NCBI GenBank assembly: GCA_964415025.1
Contig: CAYPXF010000001.1
Location: 78,629 to 142,628 of the forward strand
Source of the DNA: an uncultured Gammaproteobacteria bacterium
GTDB taxonomy: Bacteria; Patescibacteriota; Patescibacteriia; UBA10025; JAHIVO01
Length of the DNA: 64,000 nucleotides
Direction of reading: 5' to 3'
Position numbers and translations under genes: made by a program. Of this stretch, positions 6,526-51,633 are shown piece by piece. How positions within the stretch are numbered: position 1 is the stretch's first letter; each line of letters opens with the position of its first letter. Below the pieces are notes generated by a model that was given only the letters and a program-made list of their open reading frames with translations, was not told the DNA's origin and ran no database searches.

Positions 6526-6549
6526 AAAAATGAAAGGTCAGCATCACAG

Positions 6550-7645: not shown

Positions 7646-7710
7646 GCCCGCTTCGCGGGAGATCCTTCACCCACACACCATATGATGGTGTGGGGTTCTG
7701 GATGACAAAT
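7646..7710 (+). repeat. two-hairpin GC-rich intergenic motif, copy A
   Basis: about 80% identical to 16119-16183; hairpin cccgcttcgcggg plus hairpin cccacacacca/tggtgtggg with a compensatory change in copy B. Confidence 0.55.
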
Positions 7711-7805
7711 AAGTTGTGGCCAATACTTTATGACAAATGTGTCGTGTTATGGAGGGACTCAACTAACGGTAGTCATTCAGGGTCCGTAATACACTTATCA
7801 TGCAT

Positions 7806-8616: not shown

Positions 8617-8628
8617 CAACTTTACTGC

Positions 8629-10053: not shown

Positions 10054-10103
10054 ATAGTTTCCCTCGAATTACAATTTATTTCTAAATCACTCTTTTTTGG
10101 TTG

Positions 10104-11903: not shown

Positions 11904-11905
11904 AT

Positions 11906-12499: not shown

Positions 12500-12507
12500 T
12501 GTATTCG

Positions 12508-12951: not shown

Positions 12952-13043
12952 AATTTTTTAGTGTAATTATTGCTTTTAACACAATACCTTTTAACTATGC
13001 CGATACGAGCTGCAATAACGTTAACCGGATAACGAAACCCTCC

Positions 13044-14054: not shown

Positions 14055-14104
14055 TTGAAAATATCCAATTCCTTAATATCCAATATCCAATCAATGACTA
14101 ATGC

Positions 14105-35603: not shown

Positions 35604-36284
35604 TTATTCTCCCCATTCTTTCGGTACCAACGGTACGAACTGAAATCCTGGAAATTTTTTCTCCTGATAATCCGTCTCCGACTTTTTATCTACCTGCACC
35701 ATTTCCTGCTCGTATTTACCGACCGGAATGACCAAGCGTCCGCCGATAGCCAGCTGCTGCAACAGTACGTCTGGTATGCCTATCTCAGCAGCCGCGGCTA
35801 CAATTATTTTATCATAGGGCGCATTTTTTTTATATCCCTTTGTGCCGTCTCCGGTAATAAACTCTACATTTGTGTAGCCGTATGTTTTGACATTTGCTTC
35901 GCCAAACCGTTTCAGATCCGGGACGCGTTCGATGGCAATTACTTTACCTTCTGGCCCTACCAGCTCTGCCAGCAGTGCTGTCTGCCATCCTGACCCAGAA
36001 CCCACGTCTAAAATTTTATCTCCTGTTTTCGGCTGCAGCAGCTCGAGCATAAAGGCGACTGTCAGGGGCTGTGAAATCGTCTGGCCATACTCGAGGGGCA
36101 GGGGCGCGTTCACATGTGACTGGTCTTTCATCTGTTCAGTGACAAAATCAGATCGCTTCACTTTGCGAAAAGCCTTGATAATACGCTCGGACTTGAGATA
36201 GCCCTCGTCGATTAATTGTTGCACTAATTCCTCCATATTGATTTTTTTATTACTATGTGATATACTTATAGGGTAAGGGCGCAA
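35604..36284 (-). CDS. pcm: protein-L-isoaspartate O-methyltransferase
   Basis: LDVGSGSGWQTALLAELVG, ...RVIAIERVPDL. Confidence 0.85.
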   Translation of the reverse strand: MRPYPISISHSNKKINMEELVQQLIDEGYLKSERIIKAFRKVKRSDFVTEQMKDQSHVNAPLPLEYGQTISQPLTVAFMLELLQPKTGDKILDVGSGSGWQTALLAELVGPEGKVIAIERVPDLKRFGEANVKTYGYTNVEFITGDGTKGYKKNAPYDKIIVAAAAEIGIPDVLLQQLAIGGRLVIPVGKYEQEMVQVDKKSETDYQEKKFPGFQFVPLVPKEWGE

Positions 36285-36301
36285 TCGGCCCTTATTTTAT
36301 T

Positions 36302-37036
36302 GTGCTGAAAATTGCACCAAAAACAAAAAGTAAAAACAAAATGAAAATCAAATTGTGGCGACGTTTTTTCGGTGTGGCGGCAGCCTGTTCCGGCATGCTG
36401 CTCCTGGCCTCCCCTGGAGTCGCCCAGACACAACCCATCACTCCGGACGATATCTATACCCGCATTAATAACGTGCGAGCTGTCAACCATCTCAATGCAT
36501 TATCCCGTAATGCCGCTCTGGCGCGCGCGGCCCACCTGCGTGCCGCTGATATGACTGCGCGTGGCTATTTTTCGCATACCAGTCCCGACGGTGACATGCC
36601 CTGGGACGTGGCGCTGCGGGCTGGCTATGACTATGAACTCATCGGCGAAAACCTGGCCATTGACTGGCTGCGTCCAGATGATGTCATCACTGCCTGGCTC
36701 GACAGTAGCACCCACCGTGAAAATATCATGAAGCCAGCGTATACTGAAACCGGCATTGCCGTCACCTGCCAGTCCGCTGGCTGCTTAATCGTCCAGCTGT
36801 TCGGTAACCGTGCTGCTATCGCACCGCCAACACCCCAACAAAATATTACGGTAGTAAAAGAGCCTTTCCCGGCTACTCCCAGTATACCAAATTCATCACC
36901 CGGAGAAAAATCTGCGGTTCTAGGCAGTACTATTATAAAACAGAACTCCCCTGTTTTGTCCGTGCGCGATCGCTACCCGAACTGCATTGCTTTTAGTTAT
37001 TACCCAGTCGCACTTGGAGTTTACATGTTGCAATAA
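36302..37036 (+). CDS. secreted CAP/SCP/PR-1-like domain protein
   Basis: signal peptide; YFSHTSPDG...GENLA...HRENIMKPAYTETGIAV. Confidence 0.7.
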   Translation: MLKIAPKTKSKNKMKIKLWRRFFGVAAACSGMLLLASPGVAQTQPITPDDIYTRINNVRAVNHLNALSRNAALARAAHLRAADMTARGYFSHTSPDGDMPWDVALRAGYDYELIGENLAIDWLRPDDVITAWLDSSTHRENIMKPAYTETGIAVTCQSAGCLIVQLFGNRAAIAPPTPQQNITVVKEPFPATPSIPNSSPGEKSAVLGSTIIKQNSPVLSVRDRYPNCIAFSYYPVALGVYMLQ

Positions 37037-37108
37037 TCTCAAATATGAATATGGATTGCTAACCGCTGTTATCGGCGGTTTTTTAGTAAATGCACGCATT
37101 AGAATAAT

Positions 37109-37136
37109 TTGACACTTTTAACAATGCTGATAAAAT
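37109..37136 (+). promoter_or_regulatory. sigma70-like promoter TTGACA-16-TAAAAT upstream of the TasA-like gene
   Basis: 37109 ttgaca, 37131 taaaat. Confidence 0.4.
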
Positions 37137-37369
37137 TAACTAATCGCAAAAATTAAGTAAAAACAAACATCGAGAATATGGAGGATGGTTGTTTTCTAAT
37201 ATGCCTACATACTATTCCAACGCCAATAATCTAATCAAATATTTAGCCATGCCTGGCAAGGATATGGATTGTGGCCCTCATCGCAATCCCGTGTTTACCA
37301 GACATGGTCGATAATCAGCCGCGCACTGTTGTCGGTTGATTTTTTTATTATCTTTCATCTTGAAAGGGG

Positions 37370-37927
37370 GTGACAAACATGAAAAAAATTCTCGTATCCA
37401 TGCTTACCATTGCTTTTGTCGGCGCACTGTCTGTCGGTGCTACTAGCGCTGTATTTACCAGCCAGGCGACGGTAGAGGACAACACGTTCGCGACTGGTAC
37501 ACTCGAAGTACGGGTTAACGGTCAATCCAGCATCGACGGATTTGATTTTGACAATGCCGCACCAGGCGACTGCTATGACGGCCAGTTCACCGTCAATAAC
37601 TACGGTGCGCCATGGTTTGCCGGTCCGTCAACACTTGACGCCAACACCCTGACTGTCAGCGCCGTACAGGACGGCGGCAGTACCTATCTCTTCGATAAGC
37701 TGGAGATTGATGTCAACGCTAACCGCGGCTGGCCTACGGCCATGGACGTCTACGACGGCTCACTGTCTGGTCTGACCAGCGCTGATCTGCTAGCTCCGCG
37801 CTGGAGCAGTCTGGTTCCTGGTAATTCCGAGGATGTCTACTACGAAGTATGCCTCCCGGCTGACGCTGACGACTCATATCAGGGTCTGAGCACAACCTTT
37901 GATTTTATGGTTGATGCGACTACCTAG
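37370..37927 (+). CDS. TasA/camelysin-like secreted protein (SipW-cognate family)
   Basis: signal peptide then ATSAVFTSQATVEDNTFATGTLEV matching the TasA/CalY N-terminal signature (AxFxDxxxxxxxxFxxGTLxL); likely ATG start at 37379 with RBS AGGGGGTGA. Confidence 0.6.
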   Translation: MTNMKKILVSMLTIAFVGALSVGATSAVFTSQATVEDNTFATGTLEVRVNGQSSIDGFDFDNAAPGDCYDGQFTVNNYGAPWFAGPSTLDANTLTVSAVQDGGSTYLFDKLEIDVNANRGWPTAMDVYDGSLSGLTSADLLAPRWSSLVPGNSEDVYYEVCLPADADDSYQGLSTTFDFMVDATT

Positions 37928-37933
37928 TATGGG

Positions 37934-39304
37934 ATGAAGTCTTTTAGGCTGTTTATCCTGAAGATAAACAGCCACCTAAGGTTTTATAATATGAATCGTA
38001 ATCCACTGACTAACAAACGTGCCAGAAAAAAAATCATACAAAACACAGTCAATGTGGTGGTGCTGTTTGTGTTTGTCATCGCTCTCCTTATCGTCATGTC
38101 GCACGCGGGATTTGCCGGCATGAAGGTGCTGTCCGTGCAGTCGGGGTCAATGTCCCCCACCATTCCCACCGGCAACCTCGTTTTTGTTACTCCCAGTGAT
38201 TCGTACGAGGTAAATGATATCATTACCTTCCGATCGTCGGGCGAGCGCGAACTCATCACGCACCGCATCGTATCTGCCGATCCGCAGTCAGCCGAACCGC
38301 AGTTCCAGACACAGGGTGATGCAAATGATGTGGCTGATTCATATACCGTACCCCAGCGCGGTATAGTCGGTAAAGTCAGACTGTCCCTGCCGCTGCTGGG
38401 ATATGTCATCAGTTTCGCCAAACAACCGCTAGGATTAACCCTGCTGATAATTATTCCCGGAACAATCATCATTTACGAAGAGTTGAAAAAAATCAGGCGC
38501 CAGTGGAATAAAATAAAACGTGCGAAAGGATCGGGGTATTCTGTCAGAACTGCTGCTGGTGAAGCATGGCAATCAAGCATACGTACAATTAAAAAGGCAC
38601 TGCGCAACGGCCGGGATAAATTTAATATGATTTTCTTCATACTATTTATCGGGACTCTGAGCTTAATTGCCGCACCTGCCGCTGCCATCACACAAACCGC
38701 AGGAGATTTACAGATAACATACCCGCATTCTCCCCTGTTCCAGGTATCCGATGCCGTACCGGACACCGCCATGACCCGTTCGATAAATGTTTTTAATACT
38801 GGAGACGAACCACATACAGTCGGACTCGTTATGGACAGTAATCCGTCCCTACCATTAAACCAGATACTACAAATCAATATCAGACATGATGCTGAATATA
38901 TTTACGGCTATGAGCTGGGTGGGCCTACTATTACCGATGCCATACACCAAGGAGAAATCCCCCTCTGGACACTAAACCCTCAGGAAACAGCTATTTTTCA
39001 TATATCCCTCTATCTGCCACACACTGCGAATAACCAGTTACAAGGCCAGGAAACGGTTTTTAACCTGGGTATTGGCTTTACCCAGACTGAAACAGCCCCA
39101 CTTAACCCTGTGGATAACCCATCAGATGGCCTGGTTTTAGGCGACCAAACGGAAAAACCCAAGCAAACCCCTACAAACGGTACAATACTGGGGATTGATA
39201 TAGAATTACCCCGCACTGGAGGAATATTATCCTTATCCACAGCCGCAGTCATTACCAGTATAAGTATATTATTTATCAGAAAAAACAATACTAAAAATTA
39301 CTAA
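37934..39304 (+). CDS. SipW-type signal peptidase I fused in frame to a second secreted domain ending in LPRTG sorting signal
   Basis: SVQSGSMSPTIPTGNLVFV (S26/SipW catalytic Ser), two TM helices; after residue about 225 a new hydrophobic segment MIFFILFIGTLSLIAAPAAA; C-terminus LPRTGG plus TM plus RKNNTKNY. Confidence 0.6.
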   Translation: MKSFRLFILKINSHLRFYNMNRNPLTNKRARKKIIQNTVNVVVLFVFVIALLIVMSHAGFAGMKVLSVQSGSMSPTIPTGNLVFVTPSDSYEVNDIITFRSSGERELITHRIVSADPQSAEPQFQTQGDANDVADSYTVPQRGIVGKVRLSLPLLGYVISFAKQPLGLTLLIIIPGTIIIYEELKKIRRQWNKIKRAKGSGYSVRTAAGEAWQSSIRTIKKALRNGRDKFNMIFFILFIGTLSLIAAPAAAITQTAGDLQITYPHSPLFQVSDAVPDTAMTRSINVFNTGDEPHTVGLVMDSNPSLPLNQILQINIRHDAEYIYGYELGGPTITDAIHQGEIPLWTLNPQETAIFHISLYLPHTANNQLQGQETVFNLGIGFTQTETAPLNPVDNPSDGLVLGDQTEKPKQTPTNGTILGIDIELPRTGGILSLSTAAVITSISILFIRKNNTKNY

Positions 39305-39321
39305 TTGCTCGTTTTAACCCC

Positions 39322-39349
39322 TTGACAAAAATACTATTTTTGCTAAGAT
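39322..39349 (+). promoter_or_regulatory. sigma70-like promoter TTGACA-16-TAAGAT
   Basis: 39322 ttgaca, 39344 taagat. Confidence 0.35.
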
Positions 39350-39697
39350 AGGTAGAACACAAAACAAAAAGTAGATATTGACAAAAACAAGCCAAAAATA
39401 CCAAAATACTATCGCACCTTAGGAGAATAACGCACTTTTGTACAAATAACATTTGGAGGAATGTTAAAAGCCAACATTGAGTTATAAAAAGGAGGAAACT
39501 CAAGGAAAAATAAAAAAAATCAGCACAACCCAGTCGCAATTCTCAATTTTTTGAAGCTATAAAACAGCTGATTTATGCCTTATTTAAAATTTTGTAACTT
39601 AGTGTTGGCTTTTTTTGTTTGCTTAGCAAAATTTACAAGCCGAAAAATACTACCCAATAATACAAATTCGGCGATGAAAATTATACTAAGCAAACAA

Positions 39698-39796
39698 TCC
39701 CGCTGCAGCCGAGCAATGCGAGGCGGATAGCGGGATAGCAAGCTTATTCACAACCCGAGCAAAAGCGAGGGGTCGTACAGAACCGAGCAAAAGCGA
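39698..39796 (+). promoter_or_regulatory. three direct repeats CCGAGCAA(A/T)RGCGA plus GC hairpin upstream of the adhesin gene
   Basis: repeats at 39709, 39754, 39782; hairpin atcccgct...agcgggat 39698-39736. Confidence 0.4.
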
Positions 39797-39860
39797 AAAA
39801 ATCGCGCTCAAATAACAAATATTTATATATATTTTAGAAAATAACTAATCAAACAAGTAT

Positions 39861-42800
39861 ATGAGTCTAAACAACCTTATTTCCGTGAAAACACGCCAGG
39901 CCCTGTCAAAAGGCCTGCATGTTGTCGCACTCACTGTCCTGGTCCTGAATATGTCCATGGTCGGTGTGTTTGCTGTACCGCAGGCTGCTGCAGCCAGCAC
40001 TCCCGGTGAAAGCGCTGGATTAACAGTCAGCTCTGGAGTTTGCCCAGAAGGTGACGTCAAATTAGAGGCTGACGCAGTAACGTATGAGGACACAGAAGGT
40101 AGTGCTACTATCAGCTATCATCAGGGTGATGAGCATAACTATGTTACTTGGGAAGCAACAACCGGCTATACTATCACCGGCGTCTGCCTCAAGTACGGCA
40201 CTACGCTCGACAATCCTGATCCAGCAGACGGTCAGGCCGGTCCATATGACCATGATATCAGCCACGTCGTGTTGCACACAGCTGAAGATGGACCAGTATT
40301 GCCTGATCCAGTGCGTAATGAACTTCCCCAGGCATGCGGTATGCCGATTGAAGTCATGATGGTGATTGACAGATCCGGCAGTATGGATGATGCCGGCGGC
40401 GGTGAGCCGCTCGCCTCGGTCAAGGCCGCGGCCAATGAATTCGTCAATCTGATGAATTTTGATCCGTCTGACCCTATTGCCACAGACCGCGCCGGCGTAA
40501 CTTCATATGATGGATATGCCACGCTGCGCCAAACATTGACCGATAACAGCACGGACGTTATCGATGCTATCAACGCTTTGCAGGCAGCAGGCAGTACTAA
40601 TATCGGAGAAGGCGTATTAACTGGCCAGAACGACCTCATGACTAACAAACGGATTGACCCCCTCGAAGCACAGCCAATCATGATAGTATTGTCAGATGGC
40701 GTAGCGAATCGATCAAGTAATGATACTTCTTGCGAATTATGGCCGAGCGAACATACTAACTGCACTATTGATGCTGTTGAACAGGCTAATGCTGCTAAAA
40801 CCGACGATACTGTAATTTTTACCATCGGCTATTTTACACAGGCTGTTGAAAACGCATATCCTGCATCAATCGCTTTAGCGCGCCAGACAATGAATTATAT
40901 GGCATCGCAGGAAGACTACTACTTCGAAACAGACTCAACCGCTAACCTCCAGGAAATTTATAATCAAATCCAGTTTGAGCTGTGCGATCCAAATCTTGAT
41001 TTCAGCAAATCAGTAGAAAACCTGACCCGCCCGGGCTATACGACAGAAGCCATGCCGGCACACGCTGGTGATGTGATAAAATATTCGCTGACGGCACAGA
41101 CGACTGATGTATGGCCGGCAGAGGATGTCGTAGTGGAAGATGATATTTCTGATATCCTGGAATACGCTACCGTAACAAATGCGTATGACGGTACTGTCAC
41201 CGGTGGCACAATCTCCTACCCGGCTGTTGATCTCGAGGGTAATGATTCAGTGACGAAATATTTCGAAGTTACTATCAACACTGCCGATACCTGGCCGACA
41301 GACGGTGATTTTGTCATGACAAACGTATACGGCAACAGCACCGAGGTATATATCGAGGAATTCGGCACGATCCACGGCTATAAATTCCATGACTATGACC
41401 GTGACGGCGAATGGGACGATAGCGAACCAGCTCTGAACGGTATCACTATCAAGCTCTACCAGGGCGATGCACTCATCGATGAAATGGTGACTGGCGACGG
41501 TGTAGCAGTTGGGTATTACCAATTTACCGACCTGCCAGCCGGTGATTACACAGTTATGGAAGTCAAGCCAAACGGCTATGTAAATACAACCCCCATTTCC
41601 GTGCCAGTAACAGTGTCAGCCAACAGCACCGAGCGTGTTGACTTTGGTAACGACGCTGCCGAATGTAAATTCGAACTGACGAAAGAAGCTACCGAATACG
41701 TTGATGTAAACGGTGCCATAACCTATACCCTGTTTTATGAAAACGGTAACTGCACCGGCGGCGGTGTTAAGGTAAAAGACTATATCCCCGACTATACGAC
41801 CTACGTGCCCGATTCCGCTAATCCGTCAGCTACGTTTGATGGGGAAAAAGTACTGTGGAATATCGGCACAGTCGAACCGGGTGAATTCGGCACGCTGACA
41901 TTTCAGGTAACTGCTGATGACCGCGACCAGTGCGGCGACTGGGAAATCCCCAATACCGCCTACTTCTGGGCAAATGAAATGCCGAACTGGGACGATAACT
42001 ATAGCAATACTGTCTATACCACCGTACACAAAAATTGTGAAGGCGACCTGACTGTTATTAAGAACGTCATCGGCGGTGAGATGGAAGGACACAACCCAGA
42101 TGATTGGACTATGGTAGCCAACGGCCCGGAATATAGAGAATTTGCAGGTAGTGCAACTGGCGTCACCCACACCTATGATGCTGGTTCATATGTGATCAAT
42201 GAAAAAGACGGTCCAGCTAACTACACGCTATCGTTTTCTGAAAACTGTGATGAATATGGAAATGTCACTATTGAACATAGTGATAACAAAACCTGCACCC
42301 TGACGAATGAGCGCGATACCGCTACCGTCAGAATAAATAAATTTGTCGAATATGCTGACGGCTCTACCAAGAAAAATCCGGATAACTGGTCATGGCAGTG
42401 GTCAAACCAGTATGCTGACGAGTCTGGTATTGCTGGCGGTATGCAACGAACCGTATTATCCAATGTCGAATACACCATTACCGAAGATACAACCCACTAC
42501 CCAGCTGATAACTACAATACGTCATGGGTGTGTTATCCTGCCGGTGGCGTAGGTATAGCTACTGATGCGAACAAGATGCAGCCGATGTTCCACACAGGCA
42601 CGTCATTTGACGTAACACTCGAAAAAGACCAGCATATTGTCTGCACCTTTACTAATATCCGCGAAACGACTGATATCACTTTTGATAAGGTTGTTGTTGG
42701 CAGCGACATGGCTGATGACAACTGGACGTTTGCTGTTGATGGTCAAGGTGATTACAAGGATGGTGATACTGTCACCCTCCCGACTAATGAAACATTTACC

Positions 42801-44144
42801 GTGACCGAGTCATCAGAGTATGACAATCTCTTCACCCTGACTAATGCGTCCGGTGCCTGCGAGCTCGATAACGGAGTAATCACACTGTATACAGACGGCC
42901 GCAGTGACACTTGCGTTGTCGAGAATACCCGTAATACCGGCGACCTGACCCTGGTAAAAGAAATCACCGCTTCAGAACTCAAACCAGGCGGCTTCATCAC
43001 GTACCAGCTGACCTATGCCAACAACGGCAATATTGATCTCACTGGGGTACAAATAACTGACGACTATCCGCAGCAATACGTGACGGTAACAAACAGCGGC
43101 ACCGGCGCTGACAACGGTGATACCATTGTCTGGAATATCGGCGATCTGCCGATTGATACCACAGGCACTGTTACCTATACCGTCAGTATCGATGAATCAA
43201 CACCGGCGGACACTGATATTATCAACATCGCCGTCATCACCTCTGACCAGACCGGTCCATATCAGGCCAGCGCTACTACAGAAATACCTGAAACGCCTGC
43301 CGGGCCCGTTCTGACCATCGATAAAACCGTCGGCGCTGACTTCGTCAATCCTGGCGATACAGCTACCTATACGGTTGTTATAGAAAATATTGGTGACACC
43401 ACCGCGACTAATGTCGAATTAACCGACCTCCTGCCTGTTGGCTTCACTTTTGTAGAATTCAGCACCGGCCTGTATACCTGGGAGCTCGGTGACCTGGCTC
43501 CAGAAGCGTCATTCACGCTGACATACGATGTCCTCATCGGTGAAGATGTTACTGTTGGTACGTATGAAAACTTTGCAGTTGCTTCTGCTGACAATCATCC
43601 TAACGTGCATGACCAGGCTTTGCTGGAAGTACGCGTCCCGACCGTCCTGGCCGAGGAAGCTGATCCAGTCCTGCAGATCGTCAAAACTGCTGATAAAGAA
43701 TTTATCAACAAAGGCGACAGCGTTACCTACACCGTAATTGTCACCAATGTCGGTGACGAGGATGCTGAGGCAGTCGCGCTCAACATCATGGTTCAGGACA
43801 TCATGCCGGCCGGCTTCACCTTTGAGGACGGTACGGTTACCAAAGTCTGGGCCCTGGGCGACCTGCGCGTCGGCGAATCACGGGAAATTTCCTACACCGG
43901 TATTTCCGATGACACGGTCCTGCCGGGTATGTACGAAAACCTGGCCGTAGCCTGGGCCGATAACCATGACAAGGTGGACGATTCAGTATCTGTCGAGGTA
44001 CGCGAACCCCAGGTGCTGGGCGAAGAACTGCCGACCACTGGCGGCTCCCTGCTCCACTACATCTACTTCATCGCTGCCGGACTGATTATCGCTTTCGCCG
44101 CCTTTGTTCTGAAACTCACCGCCTCTCCCCGCAGCCGGTCATAA
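39861..44144 (+). CDS. giant LPXTG-anchored surface protein: VWA domain, Cna-B/SdrD-B-like domain, multiple DUF11 (TIGR01451) repeats
   Basis: signal peptide; VWA MIDAS VIDRSGSMDD...GSTNIGEG...VLSDGVAN; DUF11 units such as ATYTVVIENIGDTTATNVELTDLLPVGFTFV; C-terminus LPTTGG plus TM plus RSRS. Confidence 0.8.
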   Translation: MSLNNLISVKTRQALSKGLHVVALTVLVLNMSMVGVFAVPQAAAASTPGESAGLTVSSGVCPEGDVKLEADAVTYEDTEGSATISYHQGDEHNYVTWEATTGYTITGVCLKYGTTLDNPDPADGQAGPYDHDISHVVLHTAEDGPVLPDPVRNELPQACGMPIEVMMVIDRSGSMDDAGGGEPLASVKAAANEFVNLMNFDPSDPIATDRAGVTSYDGYATLRQTLTDNSTDVIDAINALQAAGSTNIGEGVLTGQNDLMTNKRIDPLEAQPIMIVLSDGVANRSSNDTSCELWPSEHTNCTIDAVEQANAAKTDDTVIFTIGYFTQAVENAYPASIALARQTMNYMASQEDYYFETDSTANLQEIYNQIQFELCDPNLDFSKSVENLTRPGYTTEAMPAHAGDVIKYSLTAQTTDVWPAEDVVVEDDISDILEYATVTNAYDGTVTGGTISYPAVDLEGNDSVTKYFEVTINTADTWPTDGDFVMTNVYGNSTEVYIEEFGTIHGYKFHDYDRDGEWDDSEPALNGITIKLYQGDALIDEMVTGDGVAVGYYQFTDLPAGDYTVMEVKPNGYVNTTPISVPVTVSANSTERVDFGNDAAECKFELTKEATEYVDVNGAITYTLFYENGNCTGGGVKVKDYIPDYTTYVPDSANPSATFDGEKVLWNIGTVEPGEFGTLTFQVTADDRDQCGDWEIPNTAYFWANEMPNWDDNYSNTVYTTVHKNCEGDLTVIKNVIGGEMEGHNPDDWTMVANGPEYREFAGSATGVTHTYDAGSYVINEKDGPANYTLSFSENCDEYGNVTIEHSDNKTCTLTNERDTATVRINKFVEYADGSTKKNPDNWSWQWSNQYADESGIAGGMQRTVLSNVEYTITEDTTHYPADNYNTSWVCYPAGGVGIATDANKMQPMFHTGTSFDVTLEKDQHIVCTFTNIRETTDITFDKVVVGSDMADDNWTFAVDGQGDYKDGDTVTLPTNETFTVTESSEYDNLFTLTNASGACELDNGVITLYTDGRSDTCVVENTRNTGDLTLVKEITASELKPGGFITYQLTYANNGNIDLTGVQITDDYPQQYVTVTNSGTGADNGDTIVWNIGDLPIDTTGTVTYTVSIDESTPADTDIINIAVITSDQTGPYQASATTEIPETPAGPVLTIDKTVGADFVNPGDTATYTVVIENIGDTTATNVELTDLLPVGFTFVEFSTGLYTWELGDLAPEASFTLTYDVLIGEDVTVGTYENFAVASADNHPNVHDQALLEVRVPTVLAEEADPVLQIVKTADKEFINKGDSVTYTVIVTNVGDEDAEAVALNIMVQDIMPAGFTFEDGTVTKVWALGDLRVGESREISYTGISDDTVLPGMYENLAVAWADNHDKVDDSVSVEVREPQVLGEELPTTGGSLLHYIYFIAAGLIIAFAAFVLKLTASPRSRS

Positions 44145-44171
44145 GACCGCATCGCGGTTACTATAAACCAA

Positions 44172-44204
44172 AAAGACCCCGAGCATGTGCAAAGGGTCTT
44201 TTTG
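44172..44204 (+). terminator. rho-independent terminator
   Basis: aaaagacccc-gagcatgtgcaaa-gggtctttttgg. Confidence 0.5.
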
Positions 44205-44304
44205 GTTGGCGAGAGACTCTTTTGTCGACGGGATCCTGAATCAGGTTCAGGATGACATGTTGTTATATTACCTTGTCATTCCGGGCTAGGCCCAATTATT
44301 ATAT

Positions 44305-44655
44305 TCACAAAAACTCCCGGCAAATCCTCTCGATAACACCTCGCATGTTTTCATACACGTCTTCATTCCTGAACCGCAAAAATCGTATGCCAAACTGTTC
44401 TATGTACTTCTGTCGCTGGTAATCATATTCTTCCCGGCCAATGTGCGACGGGCCGTCAACTTCTATAGCCAATTTCAGTTTAGGACAATAAAAATCAACT
44501 ATATAATTCCCCACGCTGTACTGCCGGCGGAATTTGTAGCCGTATAACCGCTTATTCCGCAGCTGCGCCCACAGTAGAGCCTCGGCCTGCGGGGACTCCT
44601 TCCGCAGTTTCTTACGTCGTTTTTTCATTGACTGCTTGTTGAATGCGAATGTCAT
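44305..44655 (-). CDS. DUF559 / Vsr-like endonuclease domain protein
   Basis: YIVDFYCPKLKLAIEVDGPSH...FGIRFLRFRNEDV (E-x-D-G-x2-H Vsr-like core). Confidence 0.7.
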   Translation of the reverse strand: MTFAFNKQSMKKRRKKLRKESPQAEALLWAQLRNKRLYGYKFRRQYSVGNYIVDFYCPKLKLAIEVDGPSHIGREEYDYQRQKYIEQFGIRFLRFRNEDVYENMRGVIERICREFL

Positions 44656-44666
44656 AGTTTGTTTGT

Positions 44667-44908
44667 GGAACTACCTCCCCGCTATCACCTCCCCTCCGGC
44701 AGCCCCTTAACTTCATTGAACCCGCCCAGGCTCTTCCCCTCCTTGGAAAGGAGGGGTAACCATCCTCGTTACTTTTAGTAACTGACGTGGGACGGGGAGG
44801 TAGTTCCAGAGCACCCAGTCCACTCTATTCACCGGCCTCGGCTAGGAGGGACGGTTGTCTTACTTCCCAAGGAGGGGTGAATATTCTCGTTACTTTTAGT
44901 ATGGTGGG
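44667..44908. repeat. structured intergenic repeat block: 15-bp perfect inverted repeat plus two copies of a roughly 36-bp unit
   Basis: ggaactacctccccg (44667-44681) and cggggaggtagttcc (44793-44807); units 44745-44780 and 44866-44901 (CCAAGGAGGGGTRA...CTCGTTACTTTTAGTA); inner hairpin cccctcc-ttggaaa-ggagggg. Confidence 0.5.
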
Positions 44909-45171
44909 TGGTGTGGGGAGGATGAAAAACAGAAGGGGAGGATTACATAAAACAAAACCTTCCTGACCAGGGAAGGCTCTGCTGTTATTATACCATATCC
45001 CCCCACAGACATTTATGCTTTGACAATAATGCCATCACGTGATATTGTATGTTAATAGCAACGTTGACAAAAAATACCTTATTTTACTATAATTTGAGAG
45101 TACTAATACAAAATAAAAACTACTAATAAACCACAAAAAATAAAGAAATTATTAGTATTATCAACAATTAA

Positions 45172-48100
45172 ATGAACAAATCTATGCACAAGCACACATT
45201 ACGCTTGAGCAAGCTAGCAACCCCCCTCCTGGTCGTGACGGTGGCGGTTTTTGGTTTTGCTCTCACCGCCCACGCGGATGATGCGGGTAGCGGCGCAATT
45301 TGGACTACTACCGGTAGCTGTGGTGATCCGCAAAATGTAAACCAATACCATACAGGAGAAACCGTGTTCATTAATGGTGCAGGCTTTTCTACTAACCATG
45401 AGTATGATTGGGTTATTAGAAAACCTGGGGTAAACGGTGATATTCTTATCAATGGACAACACACTACTGATGCAGATGGCAAATTTTGTTTTCCTGCAGT
45501 AAGCCTCGACGCCGGTGCAAATGGTGTGTACCAGGTTAAATTTGGTGAAGTCAAGGGAGATAATTTTAAGGTTGTCTCTATCCCCCGCTATACTTCTGGG
45601 GATACCTGCCCACGCGGCTATACACCAGAATTATTGGACTCATACGACATCAACAGTACAGACAAAAACGGAGTAAATTTTGGCGTTACTGCAGGTAATA
45701 CATATCTATTCCATGCCTCCGGCTGGTATAATGCTAGCAATAATATTATGGCAGATGCGGGATACTCTTGGAACCAAAGTGGCCCTTTACCCGACTATGG
45801 TATTAATGGAACGGGTAGCAACTATGGTGCACACGCCTTACTTGGAGACTTGGGTGATGGAGTTGGGGTTGTTATGTGGGGCGTATTCAATGCACAAAAC
45901 ATATATGACTTTTACTATCAACCCACTACGAACAATATACAATTCCTTATAGGTGATCGATACAGCGATTGGTTCAATACCCCTTGGGACAATCAAAAAG
46001 GAATGAAAGATGATAATTCAGGCTTATTAACTCTTGATGTTTACGAATGTCAGCCTGAACCAATGAAAATAGTTGCTCACAAGATTACCTGTGAAGACTA
46101 CGCTGATTTACCTGAATGGGGAGTCGGAGCAGCAGATATTGATAAAGATACTGCTCAAAATTGGGTTACTTCCCATAAGAGCTGTGATTTCGCTAAAGAC
46201 TGGAAATTTGAGTGGGGTGACCACAATGCTAAGAACCCCGGCGATACACATTACGGTACAGCAGCAGAGGCAGGAAAGAAAGGATGGCACACCTTCGGTC
46301 CTACCGACAGCAATGGCATGGCCACGACAACCATAGATGACATACAGAAGAATTTCTGGTTCCGTGAAGTTTTACAGCTTGGCTATATCCCCTTCACTTA
46401 TGGCCCTGAAGGGAACCGGAATACCAATTCACTTTCAGCACAGGTTTATTGTAAATCAGATGTACTAAACTACGATAACTACGATCGCATTGATGATCCT
46501 CACTACGGAGAAACAATATATTGTGTTGCATTCAATGCTGAAGTCCCGGATCCATCTGTCATCCAGGGTCGCAAATACGATGACGTGAATGGCAACGGCT
46601 ACCATGATTCAAATGACACCGAAACACGTATGGATGGCTGGACTACCCGCCTCTACGACGAAAACTGGAACAGTGTCGAAGATATGAACAGCAATAACAG
46701 TATGGTCACCGGCGACACCGGCAATCCCGGTCAGTTTGCATTCGACGTCATGCCTGGCACTTATAATGTTTGCGAGGTTATGCAGAATGAGTGGCAGCAG
46801 ACCGGTCCCCTAGTTGGTACTCATCCGGTGAATTTCGATCTCCAGGACCAGAATGATGCCACCGCGGTCGCTAACCAATCCGGCATGCATGATGAGGGTT
46901 CGACCTGCTGGCAAGTGGAAATTGATGCTCAAGGCGGCGAATCGTACGGCTGGCTGAAATTTGGTAACTACTATGCAGAATGTGGAAACAAAATAAAAGA
47001 TAGCGACGAAACGTGTGATGATGGCGCAATGAATGGCCAACCAGGATATTGTAACAATGAATGTACCGGAGTAACCGCGACAGATGAAAAGAAAATTCAG
47101 ATAAATAAAACCGTCGATCCGGCCATAGCAACTCACGGTGATACGATTACCTATACCATCACTGCTACTAACGCCGACGACACTGACACCTGTGATAATG
47201 CTACTTTAACCATTACTGATGATATAACTGATGTGCTCGCCGATGCCGTACTAGTAAGTACAGACCCGTCCGTTGTCCCGGATAACAATGTACTTACCTG
47301 GACGTTTGATAACGTATCTTGCGGTGACCCCAAAACAGCCACGGTAACTGTAGAAGTAACTAATGAGGCCTTTGACGGTGCTGTTGTTGAAAATATCGCC
47401 TGGGTCATGGATCAGAATGAAAATCAGGCCACTTCTAAACAGGTAGAAACAGCTATTTCAGTCGACAGTCCCGTGCTCGAGTTAACCAAAACAGCTGCCG
47501 AGGGCCCCTTTAACCCCGGTCAGACTGTCGAGTACACCGTGACAGTGACGAACAATGGCACGGCTGACGCGACAAACGTCGTGCTGACTGATGCATTACC
47601 GGACAATATGATGTTCCAGGACGGCACGACGACCAAAACCTGGACCTGGGATATAATAGCGGTAGGCACCAGCCAAGAGGCTGCCTATACCGCCATCATC
47701 GATGATGAAGCAACTGCCAATACATATACAAATAATGCAACTGTGACGGCAGATAGTCTCGATCCAGTCAGTGCCAGCGCTGATACAGAGGTGATTGTAC
47801 CGATCGTGCTTGGCGATGCCGCGCCGTTCTTCAACATCACAAAAACGGCTGACAAAGATTTCGCCGCACCAGGAGAAACTGTTGCCTATACAGTAGTTGT
47901 CACTAATGACAGCGATGTTGACGCACTCAACACTGTCATGACAGATACATTACCGATCGGCTTTGTATTCAAAGGCAGTACTGACACGGTCAAAAACTGG
48001 GACCTGGGCACCATGGCCGCTGGCCAGAGCCGCACTATTACCTATGACGTCACCATTGACCAGGCAGCTGGCGAAGATATGTATACCAACACGGTAACGG

Positions 48101-48300
48101 TGACAGCTAATGACGCTGGACTGGTATCAGACACGGCCACTGTCGAGGTACGCAAACCGGCCGTGCTCGGCGCTGAAACAGAGGAAACTGTATTACCGGT
48201 CACCGGCGGTTCCCTGCTCCACGTGCTCTATGTGCTGGGTGCCGGACTGATCGTCGTGTTTTCCGGATTTATCCTAAGGCTCACCTCGTCCCGAGGTTAA
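45172..48300 (+). CDS. giant LPXTG-anchored surface protein: Cna-B/SdrD-B-like domain, Cys-rich repeat, DUF11 repeats
   Basis: signal peptide; CGNKIKDSDETCDDGAMNGQPGYCNNEC Cys-rich repeat; DUF11 units (ATYTVVVTNDSDVDALNTVMTDTLPIGFVF); C-terminus LPVTGG plus TM plus SSRG. Confidence 0.8.
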   Translation: MNKSMHKHTLRLSKLATPLLVVTVAVFGFALTAHADDAGSGAIWTTTGSCGDPQNVNQYHTGETVFINGAGFSTNHEYDWVIRKPGVNGDILINGQHTTDADGKFCFPAVSLDAGANGVYQVKFGEVKGDNFKVVSIPRYTSGDTCPRGYTPELLDSYDINSTDKNGVNFGVTAGNTYLFHASGWYNASNNIMADAGYSWNQSGPLPDYGINGTGSNYGAHALLGDLGDGVGVVMWGVFNAQNIYDFYYQPTTNNIQFLIGDRYSDWFNTPWDNQKGMKDDNSGLLTLDVYECQPEPMKIVAHKITCEDYADLPEWGVGAADIDKDTAQNWVTSHKSCDFAKDWKFEWGDHNAKNPGDTHYGTAAEAGKKGWHTFGPTDSNGMATTTIDDIQKNFWFREVLQLGYIPFTYGPEGNRNTNSLSAQVYCKSDVLNYDNYDRIDDPHYGETIYCVAFNAEVPDPSVIQGRKYDDVNGNGYHDSNDTETRMDGWTTRLYDENWNSVEDMNSNNSMVTGDTGNPGQFAFDVMPGTYNVCEVMQNEWQQTGPLVGTHPVNFDLQDQNDATAVANQSGMHDEGSTCWQVEIDAQGGESYGWLKFGNYYAECGNKIKDSDETCDDGAMNGQPGYCNNECTGVTATDEKKIQINKTVDPAIATHGDTITYTITATNADDTDTCDNATLTITDDITDVLADAVLVSTDPSVVPDNNVLTWTFDNVSCGDPKTATVTVEVTNEAFDGAVVENIAWVMDQNENQATSKQVETAISVDSPVLELTKTAAEGPFNPGQTVEYTVTVTNNGTADATNVVLTDALPDNMMFQDGTTTKTWTWDIIAVGTSQEAAYTAIIDDEATANTYTNNATVTADSLDPVSASADTEVIVPIVLGDAAPFFNITKTADKDFAAPGETVAYTVVVTNDSDVDALNTVMTDTLPIGFVFKGSTDTVKNWDLGTMAAGQSRTITYDVTIDQAAGEDMYTNTVTVTANDAGLVSDTATVEVRKPAVLGAETEETVLPVTGGSLLHVLYVLGAGLIVVFSGFILRLTSSRG

Positions 48301-48324
48301 TATACGCAGTACAAACTGCACCAA

Positions 48325-48352
48325 ACCGTCCCGCTCCAGCGGGGCGGTTTTT
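48325..48352 (+). terminator. rho-independent terminator
   Basis: accgtcccgc-tcca-gcggggcgg plus T5. Confidence 0.5.
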
Positions 48353-48412
48353 GGTTGATTTTCATCATTAAAAATGATATACTATAGTAAACTGTCATCA
48401 AGGGGGTGACAA

Positions 48413-48655
48413 ATGGCAACTGATCTGATTCTAATTGATCTTTCAAAATGTGAGATCAGTAAACACGCGCTAGAGCGCTTTATGCAGCGCACCGGTAAAA
48501 CCGATGAGGCCAGAGCCTTAATCGAGCTTCGGGCAATGCTCGGCCAATGTAATTATAAACATCCGTGCGGAAATTTTTGCTATACATTTTCATCGTTTGA
48601 TTGGAGTATTGTGGCAAATATTAGAGATAGTATTATCATCACTATTTACCACTAG
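48413..48655 (+). CDS. small hypothetical protein (80 aa) with the same translation-initiation region as the TasA-like gene
   Basis: RBS/ATG context agggggtgacaaATG identical to 37366-37381. Confidence 0.4.
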   Translation: MATDLILIDLSKCEISKHALERFMQRTGKTDEARALIELRAMLGQCNYKHPCGNFCYTFSSFDWSIVANIRDSIIITIYH

Positions 48656-48782
48656 CGCGTATATTAAGCCTTTCTATTATATGAAGGGCTTTCTTTTTGC
48701 GCACTTACCCTTGACAAATTAAGTATGCTATGGTAGATTATATTGTTATAAATATGAATTGTACGATATAATATAAAAAGGT

Positions 48783-50378
48783 ATGACTGCTAAACAAGCA
48801 CAAAAAAATATCAGCCATCATTGTAAACGTGCGGGCGAGCATACAAAACATTTTTTCATACCGCACCACGGCAACAACCACCATCCCCACGCTTTGCGAC
48901 CACCGGCACTACGTTTGTACGCCGTGTCAATTATTGGTATCAAATTGTTTGTTAGTGCTTTTCTCTTTGCCGCGTACCCGTCGACAGGTGAATTCGCGAC
49001 CATTGCCCGGGCTGAAATACTAAACCTAACCAATAGCTCCCGAGCTGCTGCCGGCGTGGCTGCGTTATCTATGAGTACGACCCTGAACCAGGCTGCCCAG
49101 CTCAAGGCCGAGCATATGCTGGCACACGGCTATTTTGCCCATACAGCGCCAGACGGCACCAAGCCATGGTCTTTTCTCAAACAGGCCGGCTACGACTATA
49201 CTGCCGCGGGTGAAAATTTGGCTATGGACTTTACCGAGGCCAGCACAGTGCACGCCGCCTTTATGAACAGCCCGTCGCATAAGAAAAATATCATGAACGC
49301 CAAGTACACTGAAATGGGTGTGGCCGTACTCGAGGGTGAGCTAAACGGTACGCAGACGATTATTTTAGTCGAGTTTTTCGGTACACCGTACCAATCTCCT
49401 GCTACTCCGGTAGCCGAACCCGAGCCAACGCCAGCTCCCGAACCTGAACCAGTCCCTACTCCTGCGCCCGAGCCTGCCCCAACACCAGAACCTACTCCTG
49501 CGCCTGAACCTACTCCTGCGCCTGAACCTACTCCGGCGCCCGAGCCAGAACCCGAGCCAGCACCTACTCCTGCTCCCCGGCCAACAGCGGCTGAAATCGC
49601 GGCTAATCCAATTAACTACCAGGCCGAGCTCTCTGACCAGAGCGCTGAACAGCTGGGTATCAAAACACTGGAGGAATTTGACTACTGGGTAGAGTTTAAA
49701 AACACCGGCACGGCCACTTGGACTAAAAGCGGCGAGTATTATGTCGCCCTGAACGTAACCAACCCGGCTGGCCGACACAGCGAGTTTGAGCATGAAACCT
49801 GGGTCGAATACTATCGTCCGGCCGTATTACTACAGTCTTCAGCTGCCCCGGGAGAGGTTGGCCGGTTCGAATTCACGCTCCAGGCACCAGAAGAGGCCGG
49901 TACGTACGAAGAATCGTTTGGTCTGGTAGCAGAAGACCTGGCCTGGATTGACGGCGGTTCGATCGAATTGCCTATCGTAGTCGTGGCTCCGCCCGAAAAA
50001 AGCACTGAAACCGAAGTAGAGGTGGTTAATACCCCGCTCTCTACCTCGCCTGACCAACCTGACACCCCGTCTGAACCAACACCCACAATAGAACCACTGG
50101 CCACTGAAGAAGCCGAGGGGCCTATCGTGGAATCACAGTCATTTGACAGCGACGAACAAAGTTTTGTGGCGAAAATTATCGAATACTCGCATCAATACTA
50201 CGCAATTATACTGGCTTTTCTGATAATCGCGCTCGGCATCAATATATTTGTTGATGTCCGCGTGCAGCACGCTCATGTTATTGCGCAGACACTGATCGTC
50301 ATCATTATAGCGTCTGCCGCTATTTTCCTGCACCCGCACTTCCTGGAACAGCTGCCAAAAGCCTTTAAAATCATATAA
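48783..50378 (+). CDS. surface protein: CAP/SCP domain, Pro-rich (PAPEPTP) linker, Ig-like beta-sandwich domain, C-terminal TM anchor
   Basis: HGYFAHTAPDG...GENLA...HKKNIMNAKYTEMGVAV; linker PAPEPEPVPTPAPEPAPTPEPTPAPEP...; C-terminal hydrophobic helices. Confidence 0.65.
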   Translation: MTAKQAQKNISHHCKRAGEHTKHFFIPHHGNNHHPHALRPPALRLYAVSIIGIKLFVSAFLFAAYPSTGEFATIARAEILNLTNSSRAAAGVAALSMSTTLNQAAQLKAEHMLAHGYFAHTAPDGTKPWSFLKQAGYDYTAAGENLAMDFTEASTVHAAFMNSPSHKKNIMNAKYTEMGVAVLEGELNGTQTIILVEFFGTPYQSPATPVAEPEPTPAPEPEPVPTPAPEPAPTPEPTPAPEPTPAPEPTPAPEPEPEPAPTPAPRPTAAEIAANPINYQAELSDQSAEQLGIKTLEEFDYWVEFKNTGTATWTKSGEYYVALNVTNPAGRHSEFEHETWVEYYRPAVLLQSSAAPGEVGRFEFTLQAPEEAGTYEESFGLVAEDLAWIDGGSIELPIVVVAPPEKSTETEVEVVNTPLSTSPDQPDTPSEPTPTIEPLATEEAEGPIVESQSFDSDEQSFVAKIIEYSHQYYAIILAFLIIALGINIFVDVRVQHAHVIAQTLIVIIIASAAIFLHPHFLEQLPKAFKII

Positions 50379-50499
50379 AACAAGCATAACAGGGGCTCGA
50401 TCCCTGTTTTTGGCGATACCGGGGCCTGGCTTGACTGGTTTGGCTGTTTTTATTACAATACAATAATTATCTCTTAAACAAGTAACCAAAAGAAACCGT

Positions 50500-51633
50500 A
50501 TGATAAGCAGGATTTACAGGGGGGCTGTTAATTCACGATGGCTGATTATTGCCGCCGTGGGATTTTTTGTTTTATGCTGGGGCATGGTAGCCCAGGCGCA
50601 GACTGATACTAATCATCCGCCGATGATTACCTCTGAACCAGAGATTGAACTCACGACTGATGAGCTGTTCCGCTATGAAATTACGGCGACTGACCGTAAC
50701 GATGACACGCTTGTCTACAGTCTGACGACCGCGCCAGATGAGGCTATTATTGCAAATAATATAGTTTCCTGGCAGCCAACCGAGCCCGGAACGTATAATT
50801 TTGTGATTGAGGTAACCGACGATCAGGCGGGTTTTGATACCCAGGCCTGGCAAGTTACCGTCGCTACCGGCCAAACTGCGTCCATCGTTATTACCCCTAA
50901 TGACCGACCGACACTCGTACCCATCGGCTCGAGCCAGCAGTTTTCCGCTCGGCTATATGATGCGTACAATAACCCAATCACTGATATTAATCCGGTATGG
51001 ACCACTGATCCGATTACCGGCACCATTACTGACAATGGATTGTTCTTTGCCAAAACCGGAGGAATCGGCTATGTAGCAGCTACTGCGGAAAACATAACCA
51101 CTTCTATCGGCGTCATCGTGAAGGATATCCGCTCCGAGCTCGTGACTGAAACGCAGGCCGATGAACCAACAGCGGACGAAGCAGCAGAACAAACAGACGC
51201 GCCAACCGAACAAACAGCGCCAGTGGAGAATACTGCCCCTGAACAAGAACAGGACGAGGGCGATGTGATGGGCGAAGAAACAATTGCTGAAACCGGTACT
51301 GAAGAAGCGGCTACCGAAGAGAACGATGAAGCAGCTGCCTGCACTAACTGGGCGCACTGGGCTATTATTACTATCCTGGCGGTCTACGGTTTGGCATTGA
51401 TCGTGTTCTTCCGCTATGAAAAGAAAAACCGGGCCGGTAGCTGGTGGATATTTCCGACTCTGCTGACAGTAATCGGTCTGATACTGTATTACAAATACTT
51501 CTGCCCCGAGACGTATTTGTGGTGGCCGTGGGTATTAGTCGGCATTGGCGTAGTCGTTACTATCTTTTTCAAAGGCAGGCCAAATAACCCAACGGATGAA
51601 ATTGATGACTCGCAGAATGAGCTGCCACTCTAG
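50500..51633 (+). CDS. surface protein with putative Ig (He_PIG-like) and Big_2-like domains, acidic linker and C-terminal TM helices
   Basis: signal peptide; PMITSEPEIELTTDELFRYEITATDRNDDTLVYSL (He_PIG-like); acidic linker; 3 C-terminal TM helices. Confidence 0.5.
   Translation: MISRIYRGAVNSRWLIIAAVGFFVLCWGMVAQAQTDTNHPPMITSEPEIELTTDELFRYEITATDRNDDTLVYSLTTAPDEAIIANNIVSWQPTEPGTYNFVIEVTDDQAGFDTQAWQVTVATGQTASIVITPNDRPTLVPIGSSQQFSARLYDAYNNPITDINPVWTTDPITGTITDNGLFFAKTGGIGYVAATAENITTSIGVIVKDIRSELVTETQADEPTADEAAEQTDAPTEQTAPVENTAPEQEQDEGDVMGEETIAETGTEEAATEENDEAAACTNWAHWAIITILAVYGLALIVFFRYEKKNRAGSWWIFPTLLTVIGLILYYKYFCPETYLWWPWVLVGIGVVVTIFFKGRPNNPTDEIDDSQNELPL

Follow-up and report, generated by a model that had tools for sequence, protein, structure and literature searches.

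In the 64-kb stretch of DNA analyzed here (contig CAYPXF010000001.1, positions 78,629 to 142,628 of the forward strand; hereafter the window), which derives from a probable bacterium of the Candidate Phyla Radiation (CPR), a gene for a TasA-like secreted protein, the major subunit, is followed by a gene for a SipW-type signal peptidase and by the genes for two giant surface proteins, adhesin 1 and adhesin 2. An earlier note on this DNA had read these genes as one dedicated attachment or fiber system of 11 kb. Our analysis points instead to a compact two-gene TasA-type fiber module as the core of the locus, with the two adhesins located next to the module without being part of it, a reading to which we assign a probability of about 0.6. 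The second gene of the module encodes a two-domain fusion, which had been overlooked, of the SipW-type peptidase and an anchored TasA paralog, the minor subunit, with its own LPRTGG motif, transmembrane (TM) helix, and basic tail. All open reading frames (ORFs) named before were recovered in place from the ORF list, and the domain calls held in Pfam and NCBIfam searches. The coordinates of the features are collected in Table 1.

The description of the first gene product as a TasA/camelysin-like protein was borne out by a match to PF12389 (Peptidase_M73) of 31.1 bits against a cut-off of 22.5, and the model for SipW-cognate signal peptides, TIGR04088, scored 28.5 bits (cut-off 19). The TasA equivalog model NF046066 reached 18.8, far under its cut-off of 450, and thus the major subunit is not an ortholog of Bacillus subtilis TasA. 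The true start of the gene is probably ATG 37379 rather than GTG 37370, because the resulting N-terminus, MKKILVS, matches that of the homologs. The mature protein opens with a donor strand, VFTSQATVEDN, which continues through TFATGTLEV into a jelly-roll body. A profile of the major-subunit family matched the B. subtilis TasA structures 5OF1 and 8AUR (E = 5e-5), and the profile alignment pairs TVEDNTFATGTLE of the major subunit with KSKDATFASGTLD of TasA; a C-terminal N-x-Y-Q-G motif also agrees between the two. In TasA, mature residues 28-38 form the donor strand and residues 39-47 lead this strand into the next subunit (PMC9674648), which, together with the alignment, indicates that the CPR major subunit retains the donor strand. 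The AlphaFold2 (AF2) model of the major subunit had a predicted local distance difference test (pLDDT) score of 89.4 with a flexible N-terminus, and the best matching folds in the PDB were AbpA (7UEG, E = 2.8e-4) and a cannula subunit (9H8B, E = 3.7e-4). Both AbpA and the cannulae form filaments of the donor-strand type.

For the major subunit, 56 homolog clusters were obtained, 53 of which are 47-77% identical to the query, and the named homologs belong to "Patescibacteria group bacterium" and "Candidatus Andersenbacteria". The nearest major subunit (locus L002) is 74% identical, versus only ~42% for the SipW fusion that adjoins it, and this is the pattern expected of a self-polymerizing subunit, the whole surface of which is interface. 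A six-frame search of the window for further proteins with a TasA-type signal and donor strand returned only the major subunit. Two cysteines, C68 (PGDC...) and C161 (...VCLP) in the numbering of the 185-aa ORF, are jointly present in most homologs and jointly missing in others (e.g., L084 and L086), which suggests that they form an optional disulfide.

The SipW ORF follows the major-subunit gene immediately, as noted before, with 6 nt in between, and its assignment as a SipW-type peptidase was confirmed by the archaeal-type signal peptidase I model TIGR02228, with 107.8 bits (cut-off 51.85). The equivalog model for Bacillus SipW, NF046067, gave 106.9 bits, under its cut-off of 190, thus the SipW type is shared and the ortholog group is different. 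The peptidase half comprises residues 34-198, and its motifs SGSM (Ser, 70), THR (His, 109), and GDAN (Asp, 128), which are those of a Ser-His and not of a Ser-Lys peptidase, are invariant across seven aligned homologs. The top fold matches of this half were human SEC11A/C (7P2P/7P2Q, E = 3e-6), and the nearest SipW domains among GTDB species representatives were found in metagenome-assembled genomes of Paceibacterota, Saccharibacteria, and Parcubacteria. A search of these representatives with the SipW-fusion alignment yielded relatives of the peptidase domain alone.

Behind TM2 and a basic linker, the fusion contains a third, signal-peptide-like helix with a predicted AxA cleavage site after residue 251 (AAPAAA/ITQ, the slash marking the cut). 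Directly N-terminal to this site, at residues 244-249 of the 456-aa protein, the pLDDT of the AF2 model falls below 50, and TM3 aligns with the N-terminal signal peptides of the free-standing minor subunits of related loci. The domain that follows matched the major subunit in BLASTP (E = 8e-4 over 173 residues), and hhalign aligned the major and minor families with a probability of 98.8% and an E-value of 1.4e-16, the match beginning at ATGTLEV. In the AF2 model this domain is a beta-sandwich with a pLDDT mostly above 90, and the TasA fiber 8AUR was the third-ranked fold match (E = 2e-5). Based on the BLASTP, hhalign, and fold matches, we conclude that the C-terminal half of the fusion is a TasA paralog. 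What is missing from this paralog is the donor strand of ~11 residues: in 16 members of the minor family, only 2-6 residues separate the predicted mature N-terminus from the G-x-L motif that follows. The resulting four-pass topology is coherent, with both folded domains facing outward and both basic segments inward. The fusion is confined to the lineage of the window, where it was found in four independent loci (the window, L002/L003/L091, L092, and L093, from different metagenomes) plus the protein P0003, with lengths of 436-480 aa and ~40% mutual identity. Sister lineages keep sipW and the minor-subunit gene as separate genes.

Metagenome contigs were scanned with the major-subunit alignment, and 45 distinct loci were annotated with purpose-built hidden Markov models (HMMs). 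In all 38 loci with more than 300 nt downstream, sipW directly follows the major-subunit gene. Among the 17 loci with more than 3 kb downstream, 11 encode a lamin-tail-domain (LTD) protein and 11 a minor TasA-like subunit. The LTD proteins match the major-subunit HMM at positions 1-44 only, that is, over the signal peptide and the donor strand, and pass from the TasA-type donor strand straight into the LTD fold. Judging from this layout, the LTD protein is a donor-only, TapA-like candidate for the tip or the nucleator of the fiber; in Bacillus, TapA has been proposed as a donor-only protein (PMC9674648). In some cases (P0005, P0006, and P0008), the LTD domain is instead fused to sipW. In the minor family, by contrast, the match to the major-subunit HMM starts around position 40-54, and every minor subunit bears a C-terminal anchor, which can be an LPXTG signal, a single TM helix, or three TM helices (Table 1). 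A word-indexed search with the minor-family alignment returned six proteins only, and the size of this family is based on the HMM annotation of the loci. Of the 19 related loci with long flanks, 11 have a CAP gene no more than 4 kb from the module, compared with 1 of 80 SipW loci of other phyla. CAP genes also lie on both sides of the window locus, as the earlier note had reported.

Building on the observed homologies, folds, anchors, gene order, and the presence or absence of a donor strand in each protein class, we propose the following mechanism. The 182-aa major subunit would be exported and, by analogy with the family, relieved of its SipW-type signal peptide by the peptidase domain encoded by the next gene. 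The mature protein keeps an N-terminal strand homologous in position to TasA residues 28-47, and could polymerize by donor-strand exchange, like TasA, AbpA, and the cannulae. The fusion polypeptide is predicted to cross the membrane four times, in the order TM1, SipW catalytic domain (outside), TM2, basic cytoplasmic linker, TM3 with the AxA site, jelly-roll (outside), and LPRTGG-TM4-basic tail. A cut at AAA/ITQ, made by the peptidase domain of the fusion itself, would then free a minor subunit consisting of an acceptor body without a donor strand. Such a subunit could only take up a free donor strand at one end of the fiber, and a sortase encoded elsewhere would link it to the peptidoglycan via LPXTG, and would do so independently for the two adhesins. 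The minor subunit would in this way serve as both terminator and anchor of the fiber, comparable to basal pilins or PapH. Extending this scheme to the related loci, we tentatively propose, with the odds somewhat against it, that many CPR/Patescibacteria carry a hitherto undescribed, conserved donor-strand pilus that requires no chaperone and has three parts: an LTD tip or nucleator, a shaft of the ~180-aa TasA-like protein, and an anchored acceptor-only base, together with a dedicated SipW and a frequent CAP neighbor. In the lineage of the window, SipW and the base would have become fused into a self-processing protein and the tip gene would have been lost.

The two giant proteins are built as the earlier note had described them. 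Adhesin 1 has a Sec signal, VWA, SdrD_B/SpaA-like, and DUF7927 domains, four DUF11/CLIPPER stretches, and ends with VLGEELPTTGG, a TM helix, and a basic tail. Adhesin 2 has a Sec signal, an N-terminal region without domain assignment, three DUF11/CLIPPER stretches, one Cys-rich repeat (residue 604), and ends with VLGAETEETVLPVTGG, a TM helix, and a basic tail. DUF11 scored 177.9 and 131.3 bits in the two proteins; this domain now bears the name CLIPPER and is a CnaA-like, isopeptide-bonded stalk domain that fibrillar adhesins typically contain (PMC12617251). Like the CLIPPER-stalk fibrillar adhesins described there, the window proteins combine an N-terminal adhesive region (VWA in one of them), a stalk of SpaA/CnaB-like and CLIPPER domains, and a C-terminal sorting signal. 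Nothing notable sets them apart, and they add new sequences to a very large family. Adhesin 2 was matched by 16,376 cluster representatives at E ≤ 1e-3, mostly via its CLIPPER repeats, and the same cluster search contained no full-length relative outside its own cluster. Neither adhesin contains a TasA-type donor strand, and the signal peptides of both are ordinary Sec signals. A [WYF]PK[NDQ] pilin motif was absent from the adhesins, the fusion, and the major subunit. We also considered the adhesins as sortase-polymerized pilins, and rejected this in view of the missing YPKN-type pilin motif and the lack of a class C sortase nearby. Both giant proteins are typical fibrillar adhesins that are probably wall-anchored and independent of the fiber module.

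A motif scan of all ORFs in the window found exactly three convincing LPXTG-type signals, LPRTGG in the fusion, LPTTGG in adhesin 1, and LPVTGG in adhesin 2, all within the locus and each followed by a TM helix and a basic tail. In all three, VLG[DEA] stands ahead of LPxTGG, and because of this shared VLG-x-E...LPxTGG pattern the three proteins are probably served by one and the same sortase. The earlier note had named a lack of conservation across homologs as a sign that the motifs are no true sorting signals. We found them to be conserved: all nine adhesin-2 relatives that align at the C-terminus have VLG[AED], then LP.TG (seven) or LA.TG (two), followed by a TM helix and a basic tail, and, besides the window fusion, three of its four relatives carry the motif, as LPITG in L002 and L093 and as LPETG in L092. 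Among free-standing minor subunits, LPETG occurs in L084 and LPSTG in L105. A closed CPR genome is reported to encode a sortase (PMC7143001).

The distance between the promoter-like site at 37109 and the major-subunit gene leaves a leader of ~240 nt, a spacer of 556 bp precedes adhesin 1, and a spacer of ~1 kb with the opposite-strand DUF559 gene precedes adhesin 2, which has a promoter-like site with a 12/12 consensus match in front of it. The claim that both large genes end in strong terminators stood for adhesin 2, with a GC-rich hairpin and a T-run, and not for adhesin 1, where the hairpin is weaker and has a loop of 14 nt; the latter was not listed by our terminator scan, which was limited to loops of up to 8 nt. 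Promoter-like sites were more common in the window than in shuffled sequence (37 versus 23.9, SD 4.7). These sites are suggestive of separate transcription units for the CAP gene, the fiber module, adhesin 1, and adhesin 2. The parts of the presumed 11-kb unit therefore appear to be separately transcribed, and their combination is not conserved: of the 16 other related loci that extend more than 3 kb past the module, only L105 has a DUF11/LPXTG protein.

It is unlikely, in our view, that the module and the two LPXTG adhesins form one dedicated attachment system in which the adhesins decorate or are displayed on the fiber, or are co-regulated and co-processed with it. In its favor, the genes lie side by side in one orientation, no LPXTG-type signals other than these three, which have a common VLG-x-E...LPxTGG pattern, occur in the 64 kb, L105 has a 439-aa DUF11 protein with LPITG directly after its LPSTG minor subunit, and CAP genes stand at both flanks. 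Set against this are the separate promoter-like and terminator-like sites, the long spacers with the intervening DUF559 gene, the 15 remaining related loci that extend more than 3 kb past the module and have no DUF11/LPXTG protein, and the ordinary Sec signals of adhesins that carry no TasA-type donor strand.

Several observations weigh against a two-gene fiber module as we propose it. The PF12389 match covers only residues 5-80, i.e., the N-terminal ~75 residues of the major subunit, the Foldseek TM-scores of the major subunit are modest (0.36-0.50), and polymerization, cleavage at AAA/ITQ, and the polarity of capping are all steps that we infer. The window has no donor-only LTD component, and neither has the rest of the fusion lineage, so the scheme does not account for nucleation. 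Many minor subunits elsewhere have TM anchors, hence wall linkage is not essential to the system, and P0003, one of the four fusion relatives, has no LPXTG motif. The LPXTG models stayed below their cut-offs on the adhesins, in the case of TIGR01167 by a small margin: it gave 13.7 bits on adhesin 1 and 14.2 on adhesin 2 (cut-off 15.9), PF00746 reached 8.6 (cut-off 20), and neither model matched the tail of the fusion. Searches of the window, of 5 kb on its left side, and of the related CPR loci yielded no sortase gene; they used Pfam on the large window ORFs, the TLxTC motif, and an SrtA HMM of low sensitivity that was made from a single sequence. The TLxTC search did detect sortases in the Clostridium and Lachnospiraceae control loci. 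Finally, the argument for separate transcription units is built on promoter-like and terminator-like consensus matches, and terminator-like sites were no more common than in shuffled sequence (17 versus 13.9, SD 3.6).

The weak, N-terminal Pfam match and the low TM-scores would also suit TasA-like proteins that are monomeric secreted or surface proteins, either camelysin-like or forming a matrix coat, with the fused domain being merely an anchored paralog. We consider this improbable. The conserved donor-strand segment aligns residue for residue with that of TasA, conservation of the major subunit is very high, and donor-strand filaments make up all of the best structural matches. Moreover, it is difficult to see, unless strands are exchanged, why a single operon would encode separate donor-only, donor-plus-acceptor, and acceptor-only proteins.

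A two-gene fiber module also accounts for the locus better than a function of the SipW homolog like that of Streptococcus pyogenes SipA/LepA, a signal-peptidase-like factor required for pilus polymerization by sortase, with the VWA/CnaB adhesins as its clients. SipA (4N31) was the fourth-ranked fold match (E = 2e-4), SipW homologs do occur in sortase-pilus loci of Lachnospiraceae (L026, L028, L036, and L042), and the VWA and SpaA-like composition of adhesin 1 resembles that of pilus tip adhesins. S. pyogenes SipA is not known to be catalytic, whereas the catalytic Ser and His motifs of the SipW domain are intact. Moreover, a TasA-like gene with the cognate signal adjoins sipW in 38 of 38 loci, there is no class C sortase nearby, and the adhesins lack a YPKN pilin motif, which makes such a role very improbable. 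That the 456-aa fusion is an assembly or frameshift artifact joining sipW to a downstream gene, as the separate genes in most related loci might suggest, was rejected, since four loci, each from another metagenome, and P0003 share the fusion at a mutual identity of only ~40%, and its membrane topology is self-consistent.

Compared with the B. subtilis tapA-sipW-tasA operon, the window has in common that an ER/archaeal-type signal peptidase adjoins a TasA-fold subunit with a SipW-type signal peptide, that the donor strand of this subunit aligns with TasA residues 33-47, and that accessory proteins share the operon. The mature window subunit is shorter than TasA (~158 versus ~233 aa) and has weak similarity to it beyond the N-terminus, there is no TapA homolog in the window, and the accessory protein is, unlike in B. 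subtilis, an acceptor-only TasA paralog with a sortase signal that is fused to the peptidase, in a probable CPR host. Sortase pili of the SpaA/SpaB/SpaC type have a basal pilin, and PapH is the terminator of a chaperone-usher pilus. As in these systems, we propose a one-sided special subunit that ends and tethers the shaft and carries a wall or membrane anchor. Unlike in sortase pili, the proposed shaft would be held together by non-covalent strand exchange and not by isopeptide bonds made by a sortase, and the locus has no pilin motif, class C sortase, or usher.

A further close arrangement is the Clostridium perfringens sipW-bsaA-bsaB(-bsaC) cluster with srtB, where sipW also lies beside a gene for a polymerizing TasA-family protein and TasA paralogs (PMC7395162, PMC11580942). 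In most strains one paralog has an LPXTG motif and was proposed, as a speculation, to be a peptidoglycan anchor; specifically, this LPXTG-bearing BsaB-like paralog may anchor BsaA polymers via SrtB, which the authors marked as speculative (PMC11580942). The sortase gene is adjacent in C. perfringens, whereas none is present in the window, and neither a peptidase-paralog fusion nor a CAP neighbor has been described there. BsaA of C. perfringens forms intermolecular isopeptide bonds. The best structural matches, the archaeal bundling pili of AbpA/AbpB and the Pyrodictium CanA cannulae, share with the major subunit a compact jelly-roll, and polymerize by donor-strand complementation without chaperone or usher. 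In these archaea, a dedicated SipW gene is missing from the vicinity (PMC9245690), and there is no LPXTG anchor.

The earlier note had regarded the pairing of a TasA/SipW module with LPXTG cargo as undescribed, which is not supported. The authors of the C. perfringens work report that TasA-family genes frequently share putative operons with genes for LPxTG and SpaA proteins, signal peptidases, and sortases (PMC11580942), and in our control loci small LPXTG or NPxTG proteins are encoded directly 3' of sipW in Mycobacteriales, Nocardioides, and Bacilli (L032, L062, L072, L076, and L082). The general theme of TasA paralogs and LPXTG proteins beside sipW is already known from Firmicutes, and TasA homologs have been reported in Patescibacteria by a Pfam survey (PMC9245690). 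In the literature that we searched, we found no description of the CPR operon architecture, of the division into donor-only, dual, and acceptor-only proteins, of the CAP association, or of the peptidase-anchor fusion. As a separate observation, SipW-type genes occur inside classical sortase loci of Dorea/Lachnospiraceae (L026, L028, L036, and L042) and Clostridium (L010, L013, and L014); the Lachnospiraceae SipW loci encode class C-like sortases with TLxTCTPY and LPSTG proteins, and recall the SipA/LepA pilus loci of S. pyogenes.

The TasA-like module is a good candidate for a second fiber system in the CPR radiation, because of the 47-77% identity over 53 clusters and the constant pairing with its own signal peptidase. 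To our knowledge, all cultivated CPR/Patescibacteria live attached to other microbes, and apart from type IV pili their surface structures are poorly known. If the proposed pilus is real, it could be among the appendages with which these ultrasmall cells attach to hosts or surfaces. The split into donor-only, dual, and anchored acceptor-only proteins predicts how TasA-type fibers start, end, and become tethered, questions that are open even in Bacillus and Clostridium. In addition, the peptidase-anchor fusion, being both natural and compact, would lend itself to a joint study of SipW cleavage and sortase anchoring.

Table 1. Coordinates of features in the window, and positions or names of related loci with the operon components discussed in the text.
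Feature	Position or loci	Strand	Length, evidence or remark
Secreted CAP/YkwD-like protein	36302-37036	+	PF00188 CAP, 67.5 bits
Terminator-like hairpin after CAP gene	37061-37080	+	Scan
Sigma-70-like promoter: TTGACA, 16-nt spacer, TAAAAT, with TG	37109-37136	+	11/12 consensus match only
TasA-like major subunit	37379-37927	+	182 aa; ORF list begins at GTG 37370
SipW-minor fusion ORF	37934-39304	+	456 aa
SipW-type (ER/archaeal-type) signal peptidase I domain	37991-38527	+	TM1, catalytic domain, TM2
Signal-peptide-like TM3, MIFFILFIGTLSLIAAPAAA	38618-38686	+	Read from sequence; predicted AxA site
Minor TasA-like domain and Pro/Thr-rich linker bearing VLGD motif	38687-39208	+	hhalign, BLASTP, AF2
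Sortase-type sorting signal of fusion	39209-39301	+	LPRTGG, hydrophobic helix, RKNNTKNY
Adhesin 1	39861-44144	+	1427 aa
Terminator-like hairpin after adhesin 1: AAAAAGACCC, 14-nt loop, GGGTCTTTTTGG	44171-44205	+	Read directly
DUF559/Vsr-like endonuclease-fold gene	44305-44655	-	116 aa; PF04480, 122.6 bits
Sigma-70-like promoter: TTGACA, 18-nt spacer, TATAAT	45064-45093	+	12/12 match
Adhesin 2	45172-48300	+	1042 aa
Terminator-like hairpin after adhesin 2	48331-48357	+	7-bp stem, 6 GC pairs, then T-run
Small ORF	48413-48655	+	80 aa
Second CAP protein	48783-50378	+	CAP domain (Pfam)
CAP-associated CPR loci	L084, L093, L100, L106, L110, L115, L117, L123, L124, L127, L128		
LTD proteins right after sipW	L084:11216-11821, L086:11201-11836, L104:3409-3984, L105:3056-3706, L106:11206-11853, others		
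Minor subunits with LPXTG anchor	Window, L002, L092, L093, L084, L105		
Minor subunits with single TM helix	L104, L106, L109, L118		
Minor subunits with three-TM module	L086, L100, L110, L124, L126		
Multi-TM minor-subunit anchors	L086:11837-12802, L100:13191-14393, L110:5632-6525, L124:12037-13032, L126:119-1099		

The starts of the major-subunit gene and of the small gene at 48413 were said to share the same initiation region. The common sequence is real, though short: GGGGGTGACAAA, of 12 nt, ends one base ahead of ATG 37379 and abuts ATG 48413 directly, and it reads as a strong Shine-Dalgarno region. An Rfam scan of positions 36000-51000, leader included, matched no family at E ≤ 0.1. The spacer ahead of adhesin 1 contains a short imperfect direct repeat at 39700-39800, (a)acccgagcaaaagcga / aaccgagcaaaagcga, and the DUF559 gene stands alone on its strand amid the two adhesin genes.

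The locus is neighbored by housekeeping genes (mraW, a PBP, a Mur ligase, lexA, L10/L12, and bacA), and no tRNA genes were found in the window. The exact proteins were also seen on an NCBI contig of 148 kb and in Logan assemblies of SRR7048225. At 528-14773 on the reverse strand lie four clustered genes whose products have HisKA_7TM and/or GAF domains, one of them being a complete histidine kinase. The GC content over much of this cluster is 0.30-0.41, versus ~0.47 elsewhere, and it may be a foreign or fast-evolving segment. Just 3' of the locus, at 50500-51633 on the forward strand, a 377-aa surface protein with Ig domains (He_PIG/Big_9) is encoded that has a C-terminal module of three TM helices (residues 280-360). 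This module matches an HMM built from the multi-TM anchors of the CPR minor subunits (E = 5.8e-8, 29 bits), and appears to be a C-terminal anchor shared among these proteins, as yet without a name, in which Cys and Trp-Trp positions are conserved.

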